From: a virus
Strand: one strand, 5' to 3'
Length of the DNA stretch: 64,000 bases
Virus record (IMG/VR): IMGVR_UViG_3300032251_000001
Coordinates: 32,001 to 96,000 of that record
Shown piece by piece: positions 1,774 through 56,504 of the stretch. The position numbers were made by a program, and so were the translations under genes. Below the pieces are notes generated by a model. That model was not told the DNA's origin. It was given only the letters and a program-made list of their open reading frames with translations, and ran no database searches. The stretch's first letter is position 1, and every line of letters starts with the position of its first letter.

Positions 1774-2712
1774 ATGCAACCATTTAGAAATATTGATAGT
1801 CTTCTTAAACCTATTCTAGTTCAAGAAGGTGTAGATGTTATTAAATATAACAAGTTAACTGAAAGTGATAAAAATGAAATCTCTAAAGACTTAGTAGCGA
1901 GAGTTTACAAGTCTATTAAAGACAAAACACTTCAGATAGATTACAGCTTTATTGAAAAGTCTAAAGGAGACATTACTAAGATTCAAAATTATGCAGACCT
2001 TGAAGGTTCTATTAATTACCTACAAAACATGTATAACAATGATACAAATGCACCAAAAGAAATAAATGACTTAAAGAAGACTCTAAACAATCTTAAAAGA
2101 TATACAAGAGACTTTACGACAGGATATAAGAAGAAAAATGAACTAGTTATGTTCTACTATAACAATGTGGTAGCTTCATTAATTAGTGCAACTTCATTTA
2201 TCATAGCAACATCTGTAGATTATATTAAGGACACTATGAAAGATATGAGACCAGTTTTCAAGGCTAATCTTAGTAAGAATAAATCTGCTAATTTATTCCT
2301 AGAAAATATTCGCTCATTCAATAGTATGGTTACTAAAGGTCATTTTAAGACTTTTGTAGATAATGCTAATAATGTGGATAACCTTGTAGGTCTGGGATTA
2401 ACTGCTTTCTTAGCTATAGCAATTGCTATATTCTGTATCCGTGATGCAGTATACATTTTCTTCTATAGTAGAAATAGTGTATCTGAAAACTTATTGAACT
2501 TAGCATATTTCGTTAACCTTAACGCAAATGCAGCTTCACAAAAAAATGGAAAAGCTAAAGGTAAACAAGAGAAAATTGCTAAACAACTAATTAATCTGTC
2601 AGATAAAATATCAGTTGAGCAAAAGGTATCTACTAAAAAAGCTGAACATGATATGAAAATTGAAGAGAATGATACAGATGCATATGTTGCATCAGACGAT
2701 GATTTACTATAA
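1774..2712 (+). CDS. probable internal head/ejection protein with hydrophobic segments, 312 aa
   Basis: SD GGGAGG; hydrophobic stretches VVASLISATSFIIATSV and LVGLGLTAFLAIAIAIFCI; acidic tail SDDDLL. Confidence 0.45.
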   Translation: MQPFRNIDSLLKPILVQEGVDVIKYNKLTESDKNEISKDLVARVYKSIKDKTLQIDYSFIEKSKGDITKIQNYADLEGSINYLQNMYNNDTNAPKEINDLKKTLNNLKRYTRDFTTGYKKKNELVMFYYNNVVASLISATSFIIATSVDYIKDTMKDMRPVFKANLSKNKSANLFLENIRSFNSMVTKGHFKTFVDNANNVDNLVGLGLTAFLAIAIAIFCIRDAVYIFFYSRNSVSENLLNLAYFVNLNANAASQKNGKAKGKQEKIAKQLINLSDKISVEQKVSTKKAEHDMKIEENDTDAYVASDDDLL

Positions 2713-2730
2713 TTAAATAGGAGGATTACT

Positions 2731-3651
2731 ATGTTTTTAAATGAAAATACAGATAATTCATATTTAGAAGGTGTTAATGAATTCGAAGGTAAATATACTG
2801 GAGAATTCGAAGAAGCATTTGAAATATGTCTTGAATCTGAAAGAGAATGGCATAATCTTGAAATGAAAATGACAAGAGCAGAACATACTGCAATTGTTAA
2901 TGAAGACACTGCTTTAATGGAAGGTGCTGTAGGCGACTTCTTTGCTAAAGCTAAACAATGGTTTATTACTTTAGGTAAGAAAATTAAAGAATTCTTTAAA
3001 CGTCTTATTGAAAGAATTGGTGTATTCTTCATGAATGCTAAAAAGTTTGTTGCTAAATATGGTAAACAATTAGAGAAGTTAGGTAACAATGAGATTAAAG
3101 GTACAATTAAAATGTATCCATCTATTGTTAAAAATTCTATAGACCTTGGTGCTTTAGATAGTTTAGGTTCTGATGAACTTAAAGAAATTGAAACAAAAGC
3201 ATACAGTGTTGAAGAAATTAGAGAGGAATTAAAGATTCCTTCAACTTCTGAAATGGCAGAAATTATTCTTGGTGGAGAAAAATCTGAAGAGACTATTACT
3301 TCATCTATTGTTAAAACTGCATTAGGAATTCTTAGAGATGAAGCTGTAATTAAGAAAGAATTAGCTCAAATTAACTCTGACGCTGAAAAAGAAATTAAAA
3401 AAGGTATTAAAGAATGTGAAGCTGCATTAAAAGGCAACATCAGTGACCCAGAAAGAAGTAAATTAAATAGAGTTGTAAGTAACTCTAAGAACTGTGCTTC
3501 TTTAGTAAATACAGTATTAGGTCAACTTGGTGGACTATATTCTAAATTAGCATCAAATTCACTTTCTATTTGTAAGAAGGCTTGGACTTCTAGAAAAGGT
3601 GAAAACATTAAGCAAAAAGGATATGAAGAGTCTGTACTTGACATGTTCTAA
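2731..3651 (+). CDS. internal head (ejection) protein paralog A, 306 aa
   Basis: Acidic propeptide rich in L-x-E sites, then amphipathic helix ALME|GAVGDFFAKAKQWFITLGKKIKEFFKRL, an architecture like phiKZ-type inner-body protein families. Confidence 0.65.
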   Translation: MFLNENTDNSYLEGVNEFEGKYTGEFEEAFEICLESEREWHNLEMKMTRAEHTAIVNEDTALMEGAVGDFFAKAKQWFITLGKKIKEFFKRLIERIGVFFMNAKKFVAKYGKQLEKLGNNEIKGTIKMYPSIVKNSIDLGALDSLGSDELKEIETKAYSVEEIREELKIPSTSEMAEIILGGEKSEETITSSIVKTALGILRDEAVIKKELAQINSDAEKEIKKGIKECEAALKGNISDPERSKLNRVVSNSKNCASLVNTVLGQLGGLYSKLASNSLSICKKAWTSRKGENIKQKGYEESVLDMF

Positions 3652-8020: not shown

Positions 8021-8321
8021 AATCCTTCTCCTTTACACTATCATAATATGAATTATGGATATTTATAAAATCATCTTTAAGTAACCCATAAAAAGCTCCT
8101 CGTTGTTTATTTGTTAAGTAAATATTGTGACGACAGTCTAAATCAAATATGATTCTTTTACATACATTTTCATATCTATCATTATGTAATTTCTTATTTA
8201 TAGCAAACTTAGCTATTTTTAATATCTCTTCAGCTGAATATTTATATATAAACCTTGATGTAACAATTTTTAATTTACTAATTGGCATACTATATAAATC
8301 AACACACCTTAAATCTAACAT
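8007..8321 (-). CDS. hypothetical protein (104 aa)
   Basis: ORF coupled to both neighbours. Confidence 0.55.
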   Translation of the reverse strand: MLDLRCVDLYSMPISKLKIVTSRFIYKYSAEEILKIAKFAINKKLHNDRYENVCKRIIFDLDCRHNIYLTNKQRGAFYGLLKDDFINIHNSYYDSVKEKDYEFK

Positions 8322-8530
8322 CTTTCCTCCAGTCCATGTTCTTTAAACATCCTTCGAATTAATGGTCTTGATACTTCACCAGCTCTATTAGGTAATATAA
8401 ATGCTTTTTTAATATTATCTTTCTTATATTTAACATGTGTACCTGTTTGACTAACTTTTTCATATCCATTTTGAGTTAGTATTTTAACAACTTCTCGGTA
8501 TTTATAACCTTTCATCCTATCACTTGCCAT
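8315..8530 (-). CDS. hicA: HicA-family toxin-like protein
   Basis: YREVVKILTQNGYEKVSQTGTHVKYK...ILP...GEVSRPLIRRMFKEHGL matches the HicA G[S/T]H motif and size. Confidence 0.8.
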   Translation of the reverse strand: MASDRMKGYKYREVVKILTQNGYEKVSQTGTHVKYKKDNIKKAFILPNRAGEVSRPLIRRMFKEHGLEERC

Positions 8531-8548: not shown

Positions 8549-8812
8549 TTAACATAGTACCTCCAAATCCATTTGATTTAATTCTTGACATACATAGAAG
8601 TTCTTTGCAGGTCTAACTGCAAAAGTTGTAAATGTATATCTAGCACTATTAGGTAAAATTATTCCTAATATATTACACCTACATGCATGACATCCAATCC
8701 CACTTACACTAGTTACTTTAAATAGTCTACCAATATCGTCAAGTACTATCATACCTTCTTTAATTTCTAATTCGTTTGGTAAATATTCCATTTTATAATA
8801 TTCTCCTTTCAA
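8549..8812 (-). CDS. hypothetical protein
   Basis: ORF behind an early-type motif; true start probably MEYLPN behind SD GGAG. Confidence 0.55.
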   Translation of the reverse strand: MKGEYYKMEYLPNELEIKEGMIVLDDIGRLFKVTSVSGIGCHACRCNILGIILPNSARYTFTTFAVRPAKNFYVCQELNQMDLEVLC

Positions 8813-8851
8813 AAGTATAATATATGTTTAAAAGAAGAATAGACACAAGGT

Positions 8852-9106
8852 CTATTCTTCCATTGACGCTTCTAGAGCGTTTATAATACTTTCTAAACCT
8901 ATATCATGTAGGTCTTTTAATTTAGCTAGATTAAGAGTAGTTCCTTTACCCATTCTATCTTCATCTCTATTCCAATCACGAATATCAATAACAGGTGTCT
9001 TACTATTTCCCCAAGTCATAATATTAACTTCTTTTTGCCATCCTTTATTACTCTCACCAAGAGTTCCTAGTTGGTCTATAATTGTATATTTTACTTCTTT
9101 AGCCAT
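8852..9106 (-). CDS. YdbC/PC4-like ssDNA-binding protein
   Basis: LGTLGESNKGWQKEVNIMTWG...IDIRDW...RMGKGTTL is the YdbC signature. Confidence 0.85.
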   Translation of the reverse strand: MAKEVKYTIIDQLGTLGESNKGWQKEVNIMTWGNSKTPVIDIRDWNRDEDRMGKGTTLNLAKLKDLHDIGLESIINALEASMEE

Positions 9107-9182
9107 AATTATCTTCCTTTCAATTTTCAGTAATTTGTATTATTTTATTGTTGCATCAATAATTAAAAGTTAAAAAATAAAA

Positions 9183-9210
9183 AAGGTATACTAAATTAAT
9201 AGTATACCTT
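9183..9210 (-). terminator. terminator hairpin downstream of tRNA
   Basis: 11-bp stem AAGGTATACTA/TAGTATACCTT followed by a T-run on the minus strand. Confidence 0.7.
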
Positions 9211-9221
9211 ATAAAGATTAA

Positions 9222-9298
9222 TGGCTCTCCCAACAGGATTTGAACCTATGACACATCGGTTAACAGCCGATTGCTCTACCGAACTGAGCTATGGGAGA
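9222..9298 (-). tRNA. trnN: tRNA-Asn(GTT) with encoded CCA
   Basis: Cloverleaf: TCTCCCA/TGGGAGA acceptor, GCTC/GAGC D-stem, ATCGG-CTGTTAA-CCGAT anticodon arm, TTCAAAT T-loop, G73, CCA. Confidence 0.97.
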
Positions 9299-9305
9299 AT
9301 ATATA

Positions 9306-9486
9306 ATGAATGTCCTTAGATACAATAGTTTCTAAGATATTGATAGGTGTACCTTTCACTCAATTAAAAGTAGAGTTACTTAGCTATCTCTTAGTACTTA
9401 ACTATACACTTAACGTTAAGAACTTTAATAGAACACTCTAGACGAGGTTACTTACTAAAGTAACTATAATATCTAAGGACATTCAT
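9306..9486 (-). ncRNA. candidate 181-nt structured RNA (6S-like size and architecture)
   Basis: Perfect 17-bp terminal inverted repeat (9306-9322/9470-9486) extended by G.U, one mismatch and 6 bp; no ORF; 7 nt upstream of the tRNA. Confidence 0.65.
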
Positions 9487-9493
9487 AAAATAA

Positions 9494-9540
9494 ATATACT
9501 TGGACTCTCATGTCCATAAAAACTCTCATGTTAAGTATAT
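9494..9540 (-). ncRNA. candidate three-way-junction RNA with twin AUGAGA loops
   Basis: AUAUACU/AGUAUAU closing stem enclosing AAC-AUGAGA-GUU and UGGAC-AUGAGA-GUCCA. Confidence 0.45.
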
Positions 9541-9548
9541 TATATGAA

Positions 9549-9621
9549 AGGATGTGATGAGGAAGCTCTTATAACTCTACATTAAATGTAAGTCCCTAAC
9601 TATCCAACATCACATCCCAAC
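9549..9621 (-). ncRNA. candidate 5' hairpin RNA at the predicted transcription start
   Basis: 11-bp stem GGGAUGUGAUG/CAUCACAUCCU with nested helices; starts 3 nt after the predicted +1. Confidence 0.45.
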
Positions 9622-9632
9622 AATTACTTGTT
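9621..9632 (-). promoter_or_regulatory. late-type promoter for the ncRNA/tRNA unit
   Basis: AACA-AGTAAT-TG on the minus strand, +1 G at 9621. Confidence 0.5.
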
Positions 9633-9658
9633 ATAAATATATTTTTAAAACAAAAAAA

Positions 9659-10231
9659 TTACTTCTTCACTCTGTCTGGATGATAATTCTTTACTTTACC
9701 ACGATATATAAATTGGAAATTTTTATTCGTTGCAAAGTCATAAGGACTAACCTTCCAAGCAGGTTTTTTGAATATCTTTATACCATTGGATTCAAATAAC
9801 CAAGTTACAAATTGAGAACAAAAGAACTCTTTATTACTTTTAGTTATTTGCTTACCTGTAAGATAACTAATTAATCCTTTAAAACTATATTTGTACTCAT
9901 CTCTATGAGAATACATAGCTTCAGCTTTTTGTTTCATACTTTGGAAGTGAACAATAGGTACATTAATTCTATATAATGAGAACGTAGCATCTGGTGCATA
10001 ATTCTCATATAAGTTTTCAATATTAATTCCACCATTCATATTGAAACCATACATATTATTTAAATTTTTATCAAATGATATTGATGCATGATTGTATGGT
10101 GTATTAGTTACATTAGTTATAACCTTAGCAACTCTAGATTTTGTATTAGATACAAGAACATATATTGGTTGCATATCTCTTACATCTTCATAAAAAACGT
10201 CTACACCAGATTCTAATAATAATCCAGTCAT
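9659..10231 (-). CDS. permuted papain-like (YiiX/YebB, NlpC/P60-like) cysteine hydrolase, probably virion-associated
   Basis: His before Cys: YNHASIS ... EFFCSQFV; N-terminal LLLE|S resembles a head-protease site. Confidence 0.75.
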   Translation of the reverse strand: MTGLLLESGVDVFYEDVRDMQPIYVLVSNTKSRVAKVITNVTNTPYNHASISFDKNLNNMYGFNMNGGINIENLYENYAPDATFSLYRINVPIVHFQSMKQKAEAMYSHRDEYKYSFKGLISYLTGKQITKSNKEFFCSQFVTWLFESNGIKIFKKPAWKVSPYDFATNKNFQFIYRGKVKNYHPDRVKK

Positions 10232-52283: not shown

Positions 52284-53069
52284 CAACCTCTATTTTTTTT
52301 AGCCAGTGTCTTAATTCAGAGAAAATAAAAGGGCAGCACTAATCTTAAAGAAATATATTATTCACTACAGTGGTAAGTCCGTCCAAAAATTTCAAAGTAA
52401 ACTTTCATAGACTTTTATAATGAAGGTATAAACTAATTCTACAAACATTATTCTTTTAAGTATATATAGTCTTATTTCTTTCTAATCTTTATAAAGATAA
52501 TATAAAGATTCATTCAACTACGTTATATCTACATCTCCACTCCTTACCTCTGGGGGAGGTCGGGAGCTACGATTTGCTATACTTCGTCTCATTCTTCTTT
52601 TTTTACTTGAATAAGGGATTCATATATAAGATACTGAATATTTACCATGTATATAAAAACTCGTGGGATATCGTGTCACTCTAAATTGAATATAATCCCT
52701 ATATACCCACTCTCTAGAAATCGCCCTATAAGGAGTAAAAAAATTAAAAAATTTTTTTCGTGGTATAGAGCCTTATAAAAAAACCATTTTTATTTTTTTC
52801 GAACTTCTTAGATATAGTATATATCCGTTTATAAAAGTGAGGGCATTACAATTCTCAAAAATCATCCATACCACCTAGACGGCACTTTTCAAGATTAGAA
52901 AACAATATCTCTCTCAGGAAAATTCCAATTTTGGTTTCAAACGCATTTTTTCTAAGGATATATAGACCCCATTTCAAGTGACTCGCCTCCTCATATAAAT
53001 ATCCATTTATCACCTGTCAAATCCCTTATATATAACCTATAGGAGAGATAAATTAAAATGAATATAAGT
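52284..53069. other. long non-coding locus A (candidate terminus/origin)
   Basis: ~790 nt without a credible ORF; G/C-rich islands; motifs shared with locus B. Confidence 0.45.
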
Positions 53070-55759: not shown

Positions 55760-56504
55760 ACTCTTCATGGGTTTATTTTTTTTATATGTATTTAATATAT
55801 AGACATCCATTTTATCAAGTATAGAATCCCCTATATATAGGTGAGGGAGAGTTCTAGATGAAATTAATAGGGGTTTATATATGGGTCACTCTAGATAGGG
55901 TTTAAGGTAAGAAGTCTATTTTTTTGTATGTTCCTGAATGAACCTGCATTGATGGGACAGTGTTTAAACGTTAAAAAATATAGCTAATGTGAGTTATTTT
56001 GCACGAGTTGAGCCTTTGACCACTTCTTCCACACGCACACACCAAGCGACAGACGGAGGGTACAATAACAAATTCTAGTAGTATGAACCTTCAATATAAA
56101 ACAAACTATCAAATTTTCAAGTGACACGCCCAAACCATATAGACTATATATACTCCTTTTTCTATATTTTATATATTTTACTCTATTTATCTCTATGATT
56201 TTTATATAGATATGATTAACCTAATGAATGGATAGTTATATATTAAATATACATTATGATTTTCTAGTATAGGTTATCTATCTTTTTATCTATATTTACT
56301 CTTATCATTTAGTAGTTATGCTATTGATTTCTATATGTAGTATTACCTTTAGTAGTGAATAGAGAGGTTTATTTAGGTTAGTATGTTTCTAATTTGAAAG
56401 AGTGGTTAGATTTTTATGCTTAGAAATAAAAAAAATAATATACTGGGTATATTATTTCTCTTTAAATTCTTTTTTCCTTTAAAAATAGTGAGTTAGATTC
56501 TGAT
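55760..56504. other. long non-coding locus B at a convergent strand switch (candidate terminus/origin)
   Basis: ~740 nt; G/C-rich island 56000-56060; motifs shared with locus A. Confidence 0.45.

Follow-up and report, generated by a model that had tools for sequence, protein, structure and literature searches.

We propose that positions 9183-9632 (minus strand) of the window, by which we mean the whole 64,000-nt stretch of the virus record IMGVR_UViG_3300032251_000001 that was analysed, form a stand-alone, RNA-only late transcription unit of an AR9-like jumbo phage, punctuated by a tRNA; we put the probability of this reading at about 0.6. As far as can be judged from the sequence, a genuine late non-coding unit is probably present here. 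The minus strand is free of ORFs here, a promoter motif stands at one end and a terminator at the other, and in this sense the unit is self-contained, as a preliminary description had held. Every element named in that description lies where it had been placed or a few bases away, which confirms the observation as such.

The AR9 group of jumbo phages carries out its own transcription, yet hardly any work has been done on what its non-coding RNAs do. A compact unit that extends from promoter to terminator is a convenient test case for the idea of phages maturing other RNAs by means of tRNA processing. The structured RNA in front of the tRNA (the leader, 323 nt, positions 9621-9299) is best read as a new, orphan example of the tRNA-linked non-coding RNAs of phages. 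The features of the unit are the following.

9621-9632, minus strand: AR9-type late (non-virion RNA polymerase) promoter motif AACA-N6-TG, predicted start at G9621
9549-9618, minus strand: module A, irregular 70-nt hairpin with an 11-bp outer stem (MFE -27.8 kcal/mol, z -4.85)
9493-9541, minus strand: module B, 8-bp closing stem around two small hairpins, with a direct repeat (z -1.65)
9306-9486, minus strand: module C, 181-nt closed RNA with a three-way junction, formed by an inverted repeat (MFE -58.4 kcal/mol, z -6.28)
9222-9298, minus strand: tRNA-Asn, anticodon GTT, encoded CCA (ARAGORN; Rfam RF00005, 67 bits)
9173-9210, minus strand: intrinsic terminator (hairpin 9210-9183) with an 11-bp stem, a 6-nt loop and a U-run (terminator scan; inverted repeat; pair probability 0.97)

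Layout of the unit and its genomic context

The parent IMG/VR virus record comprises 135,788 bp and is estimated to be ~53% complete. Its proteins share ~50% identity with their counterparts in Bacillus phage AR9/PBS1 and have a resemblance to those of Staphylococcus jumbo phages as well; by its proteins, the source genome is that of an uncultured AR9/PBS1-like jumbo phage. The region is also present on a 233-kb ENA contig, but the two copies are identical over the region and the second one therefore gives no variation.

On the minus strand, no ORF of at least 28 aa is found between 9299 and 9658, in line with the claim that this strand is non-coding, and the upstream gene (190 aa) has its stop at 9659. 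The promoter motif for which a start at 9621 had been suggested is present as AACAAGTAATTG at 9632-9621(-), an exact fit to AACA-(6N)-TA/G. The tRNA-Asn(GTT) with its CCA, also part of the preliminary description, is placed at 9222-9298(-) by ARAGORN and scores 67 bits with the Rfam tRNA model, whose cut-off is 29 bits; it is the sole tRNA detected in the 135.8-kb record. The leader is joined to it by a linker of 7 nt, and the unit has no other product. The terminator is likewise in place, as an 11-bp stem at 9210-9183 that is followed by a T-run, and the region as a whole holds two terminator-like sites where 0.4 would be expected.

The neighbours of the unit are a PC4-like ssDNA-binding protein and a weak C92-amidase-like protein. 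The gene of the former lies downstream, past the terminator, and has a late motif of its own at 9152-9141. Since the unit has a sole late motif and no early-type promoter, and since the PC4-like gene has its own motif beyond the terminator, the unit is bounded.

The late promoter motif

In AR9 the late promoter has the form AACA-(6N)-TA/G, and its last base is the transcription start site (Lavysh et al. 2017, PMC5312081). In the genome studied here, 45 gene starts have AACA-N6-T(A/G) on the same strand at most 100 nt before them, while the control tetramers (six tetramers in place of AACA, four also ending in T (AG)) give 13-23, and the spacer of the motif instances is A/T-rich, as in AR9. By these counts the late motif is clearly in use in this genome. 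The motif at 9632-9621 is the only one of the late type on the minus strand from the stop of the upstream gene (9659) to the tRNA, and no early-type promoter was found near the unit within 2 mismatches. If the tRNA is a late RNA, as it is in AR9, it must therefore be co-transcribed with the leader from this only late motif.

The motif sits in a short palindrome at 9619-9632, AACAA-N4-TTGTT, and AACA-N6-TG can consequently also be read on the plus strand, at 9619-9630. This second copy faces, in antisense direction, into the upstream gene and is probably incidental.

The plus strand also offers a potential small protein, a hydrophobic 43-aa ORF at 9310-9441, which was listed and translated in the ORF list and which has GGGAGA, a purine-rich stretch, 11 nt before its ATG. 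That a small protein is encoded here is extremely improbable. The would-be ribosome binding site simply complements the tRNA acceptor stem, every gene around the ORF runs antisense to it, and no relative of it was found among 1.84 billion protein representatives; moreover, the two plus-strand late motifs are misplaced, one lying in the tRNA gene (9262-9273) and the other downstream of the ORF.

Fold of the leader

The leader folds with an MFE of -96.9 kcal/mol, compared with -66.7 +/- 3.9 kcal/mol in dinucleotide shuffles (z -7.8). Its 113 base pairs are arranged in three modules, and the fold signal comes from modules A and C. Module A (9618-9549) answers to the 73-nt hairpin of the preliminary description, although it measures 70 nt; it has a z score of -4.85 and contains 4 G.U pairs, its energy is -27.8 kcal/mol on the minus strand versus -20.0 kcal/mol on the plus strand, and its pair probabilities are ~0.92 in the full transcript. 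The 181-nt closed RNA was also recovered, as module C (9486-9306; 69 pairs, z -6.28), which is closed by an 18-bp perfect stem and 6 further base pairs that lead into the three-way junction; it has 4 G.U pairs and a mean pair probability of 0.93.

The 47-nt twin-loop junction, module B (9541-9493), stood up in part. Its 10-nt repeat, ACAUGAGAGU, is real, with copies 18 nt apart, and both of its hairpins display the same AUGAGA loop, but on energy the module is weak when taken alone and not significant (z -1.65). The 8-mer CATGAGAG occurs at only these two module B sites in 2 x 135.8 kb. When the full transcript is folded, the modules, the tRNA cloverleaf and the terminator remain separate from one another, with a mean pair probability of ~0.9.

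The plus strand of the leader folds well too (-84.6 kcal/mol, z -6.0), and module C reaches a z score of -6.28 on both strands, as inverted repeats necessarily fold on both strands. Considering that much of the signal is plain inverted repeats, it could equally come from a feature at the level of DNA. Module C would then be a miniature inverted-repeat element or a palindromic site for replication, recombination or protein binding. The inverted repeats are indeed present (34 nt, 85% complementary, with an 18-bp perfect core, flanking 125 nt), the plus strand folds beyond chance, and relatives lack the cassette at this position, which would be expected of an insertion. We nevertheless hold this explanation to be improbable, because the nested hairpins and the separate upstream hairpin lie on the strand that has the promoter, the tRNA and the terminator, because the element is single-copy in the 135.8-kb record (about half of the genome) and because neither a transposase nor a clear target-site duplication is evident.

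The imperfections of the helices also speak against a DNA feature. All 8 of those that are of the transition type are G.U pairs on the transcribed strand and none is an A.C mismatch, whereas the plus strand has 1 G.U pair (one-sided binomial p ~0.02), so that the claim of wobbles favouring the minus strand holds. This one-sidedness is modest evidence for selection on the minus-strand RNA.

Among the ORF-free gaps of at least 200 nt in the 135.8-kb genome, 2 of 11 reach z < -6, that of the leader included. The other one (431 nt, genome positions 111448-111878, outside the window) has a z score of about -6.5 on both strands; it holds a strong terminator behind the upstream minus-strand gene, then several hairpins, and is unlike the tRNA leader. 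Two longer gaps inside the window, 52284-52854 (571 nt) and 55760-56504 (745 nt), have a GC content near the genomic one, contain no ORF of at least 50 aa according to a simple caller and show no excess structure (z -1.4 to +3.7).

Comparison with known RNA families

The view that the leader matches no known RNA family is borne out by Rfam: only the tRNA reaches threshold in the whole window, and a permissive scan of 9000-9800 returned, besides the tRNA, only chance-level snoRNA and miRNA matches. Several identities were considered individually. For 6S RNA (RF00013 and relatives) there is no match at E up to 10; 6S RNA is a rod of ~180-200 nt with a large central bubble, and module C is a three-way junction. 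GOLLD (RF02032) and ROOL (RF03087), with a size of ~500-800 nt, do not match either, and the placement beside a tRNA is all that the 323-nt leader has in common with them. Bacterial Y RNAs of the YrlA type combine a long 5'/3' stem with a tRNA-like domain, and a Ro60/Rsr (TROVE) protein is encoded nearby; here there is no Rfam match, and no TROVE domain was found in the 135.8-kb record (~53% complete).

Similarly, a retron msr/msd is rejected, with no RVT_1 match in the record and with PC4-like and weak C92-like proteins as neighbours. Type III antitoxins of the ToxI kind consist of tandem ~36-nt repeats beside the gene of an endoribonuclease toxin; the leader has just two 10-nt repeats, and no ToxN-type gene adjoins it. 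A pRNA was dismissed for want of an Rfam match and of partner genes. As an antisense regulator the leader does no better than chance, the best duplex at phage translation starts having -17.9 kcal/mol while shuffles reach -18.1 kcal/mol. The display of an anti-Shine-Dalgarno sequence was rejected as well: the leader has no CCUCC core, and its CCUC stretches are buried in stems.

Related jumbo phages have arrays of 4 to 11 tRNAs, and ~320 nt corresponds to roughly four tRNA lengths, which raises the question of whether the stretch is the decayed remnant of a tRNA array or of a lost gene, with a fold that is residual or accidental and with no homologue to show selection. We regard such decay as hardly probable. 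Nothing tRNA-like was detected in 9299-9621 either with the Rfam tRNA model (E up to 10) or with ARAGORN, an 18-bp perfect stem and a z score of -7.8 are unexpected of decaying sequence, and ORF-free gaps of comparable size elsewhere in the genome do not fold.

Search for relatives of the leader

Homologous loci from related jumbo phages, the collection of which the preliminary description had proposed, were found neither in the sequence collections nor by flanking-gene look-ups nor by model searches of eight phages. By blastn against 50,697 phage records only the tRNA was matched; five related jumbo phage records compared by DNA likewise gave only tRNAs, and in its own genome the leader finds itself only. 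Single-sequence covariance models (R1 for modules A and B, R2 for module C) were run against the whole records of AR9, S6, BpSp, SA1, LPJP1, phiR1-37 and two complete IMG/VR jumbo phages, where the best score was 18 bits and only short hairpins were hit. The pattern of the twin loops gave chance matches only, both in genome contigs and, among the matches listed and checked by blastn, in viral and metagenome contigs. In the collections, the arms of hairpin A were matched by only two unrelated high-GC sequences, the arms of module C by none, and the scans with tRNA patterns had no match. The k-mers that the leader has in common with the tRNA flanks of AR9, S6, SA1 and LPJP1 are at chance level.

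The flanking genes lead to the same picture. Searches with the flanking proteins in viral contigs gave nothing close. Homologues of the upstream 190-aa gene are present on four metagenome phage contigs (44 to 51% identity), but in all four the next gene follows directly, with no gap and no tRNA; hence the cassette is not a conserved feature of this position. For the PC4 gene the homologues are bacterial, except that of AR9, which is located elsewhere and has no tRNA with it. By all these searches the RNA is an orphan, and that no homologue of the leader was found counts against its reading as a late non-coding RNA.

Structured RNAs beside the tRNA-Asn of related phages

The sole tRNA of AR9 is also a tRNA-Asn, and it is a very abundant late RNA (PMC5312081). 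A late transcription start site at 207979 is listed under 'tRNA' in the AR9 data (Table S3 of Lavysh et al. 2017, PMC5312081). This start lies ~0.9 kb upstream of the tRNA and opens an ORF-free stretch of ~490 nt with a z score of -6.4, which is followed by a 119-aa ORF (g243) and by another, stronger late start 31 nt ahead of the tRNA. The two phages belong to the same group, use the same late consensus and have a structured ORF-free RNA upstream of a sole tRNA-Asn. However, g243 and the second promoter intervene in AR9, whereas in the present phage the RNA is fused to the tRNA behind one common promoter, and this makes the parallel a loose one; nor does the AR9 stretch resemble the leader in sequence or by covariance model.

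One short motif is common to both. UGAGAG, which is rare in either genome, is present twice in the loops of module B (9504-9531) and three times among the 300 nt that begin the AR9 207979 transcript (KU878088.1 207984-208180), where ~0.09 occurrences are expected; two copies no more than 60 nt apart exist at just two places in the AR9 genome. As the motif was spotted by eye before it was counted and is absent in the Staphylococcus and Listeria phages (it was not seen near the tRNAs of S6, SA1 and LPJP1), it is to be taken as a lead only.

In the Staphylococcus phages S6 and SA1, which are AR9-like as well, the sole tRNA-Asn lies amid long ORF-free and strongly folded flanks. When the stretch downstream of the tRNA-Asn is compared between S6 and SA1, 10 of the 81 predicted pairs show double compensatory changes and none is broken; this stretch appears to be a structured RNA of Staphylococcus jumbo phages that has so far gone undescribed. 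The stretches that were aligned are 2576-3135 of the S6 locus and 1577-2110 of the SA1 locus. The likeness to the present unit is that of a sole tRNA-Asn inside an ORF-free folded stretch, but the conserved RNA of S6 and SA1 lies downstream of the tRNA and the one described here upstream, and there is no similarity between the RNAs. A degenerate tRNA-like element right after the tRNA-Asn is peculiar to S6, being absent from SA1 and from the present phage. The tRNA flanks of SA1 and LPJP1 (in LPJP1, those of a tRNA cluster) have z scores of -4.6 to -6.5.

A single tRNA was detected in AR9, in S6, in SA1 and in the 135.8 kb of this phage, and in each case it is tRNA-Asn(GTT); BpSp lacks tRNAs, and phages that are more distantly related carry 4 to 11. 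A long structured RNA accompanies the sole tRNA-Asn here as well as in AR9 and the Staphylococcus phages, and this recurrence suggests a trait that is general in the group.

These comparisons also bear on the more modest idea that the folded stretch is a cis-acting 5' leader of the tRNA precursor, which protects the precursor or guides its processing and is degraded after RNase P has acted. The linker of 7 nt that leads straight to the tRNA in a unit without other product is what such a leader would have, no partner protein gene is apparent nearby (the neighbours being the PC4-like and the weak C92-amidase-like genes), and no antisense target rises above shuffled controls. On the other hand, 320 nt, 113 bp and three modules far exceed what a stabilising 5' hairpin would need, the AR9 tRNA is served by a strong late promoter of its own, 31 nt upstream, and can do without the structured stretch farther away, and in S6 and SA1 the conserved RNA follows the tRNA, where no role as a 5' leader is possible. 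A purely cis-acting role is therefore rather unlikely; the size and modularity of the leader, the AR9 tRNA's own promoter and the downstream RNA of S6 and SA1 point to something more than a passive leader.

Non-coding transcripts that adjoin tRNA genes are familiar from other phages and prophages. In phage K (Kayvirus), lnc001 and lnc002 are abundant non-coding transcripts beside tRNA genes, and the authors liken these lncRNAs to GOLLD and ROOL by position (PMC9241854). The unit described here shares this position, but the RNAs in question are ~500 to 1150 nt long, whereas the leader is modular and has ~320 nt.

As regards the mechanism, two further systems offer a likeness. The small stable RNAs C and D of phage T4 (species 1 and 2) lie in a tRNA cluster, are co-transcribed with it and are matured by tRNA-processing enzymes, and in MALAT1-mascRNA the upstream RNA receives its 3' end from the cut that RNase P makes at a tRNA-like element. 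The resemblance of both to the leader is one of mechanism only, between an unrelated phage or organism and ours.

Proposed processing and possible roles

According to the stand-alone late unit that we propose, the non-virion RNA polymerase would start at G9621 and transcribe ~320 nt of folded RNA (the hairpin, the twin-loop element and the 181-nt closed RNA) followed by the tRNA-Asn, and transcription would stop at the hairpin and U-run of 9210-9183. Host RNase P would cut at the 5' end of the tRNA, 9298/9299, and this single cut would both mature the tRNA and fix the 3' end of the RNA in front of it. Further cuts by single-strand endonucleases are likely in the single-stranded, A/U-rich linkers, and the near-perfect helix of ~25 bp in module C is a likely RNase III site; no phage RNase III gene was found in the record. 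Such further cutting would release one or more stable folded RNAs. We infer this course of transcription and processing, including the release by RNase P and the separate lives of the modules, from the arrangement of the elements.

Whether a released RNA acts independently in trans is close to an even question, and we lean slightly towards the negative. If it does, it might, as a guess, be a protein-binding or decoy RNA, to which the twin identical loops, suited to a dimeric binder, would lend themselves. The more specific proposal is tentative and in our view rather doubtful: the 181-nt RNA and the twin-loop element may be stable trans-acting RNAs that sequester a protein by way of the (A/G)UGAGAG loops shared with the AR9 transcript, as part of a wider repertoire of late non-coding RNAs riding on tRNA processing in AR9-like jumbo phages. 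The sequestered protein would be either a phage regulator or a factor of the host, for instance a defence nuclease or RNA polymerase.

As a separate observation on the genes that follow the unit, a gene of the HicA toxin family (Pfam, 46 bits) is located just downstream of the PC4-like gene, at window positions 8315-8530 (-), and the operon to which it belongs begins at an early-type promoter, AAACATATATTAT-N6-G, at 8810-8829 (-).
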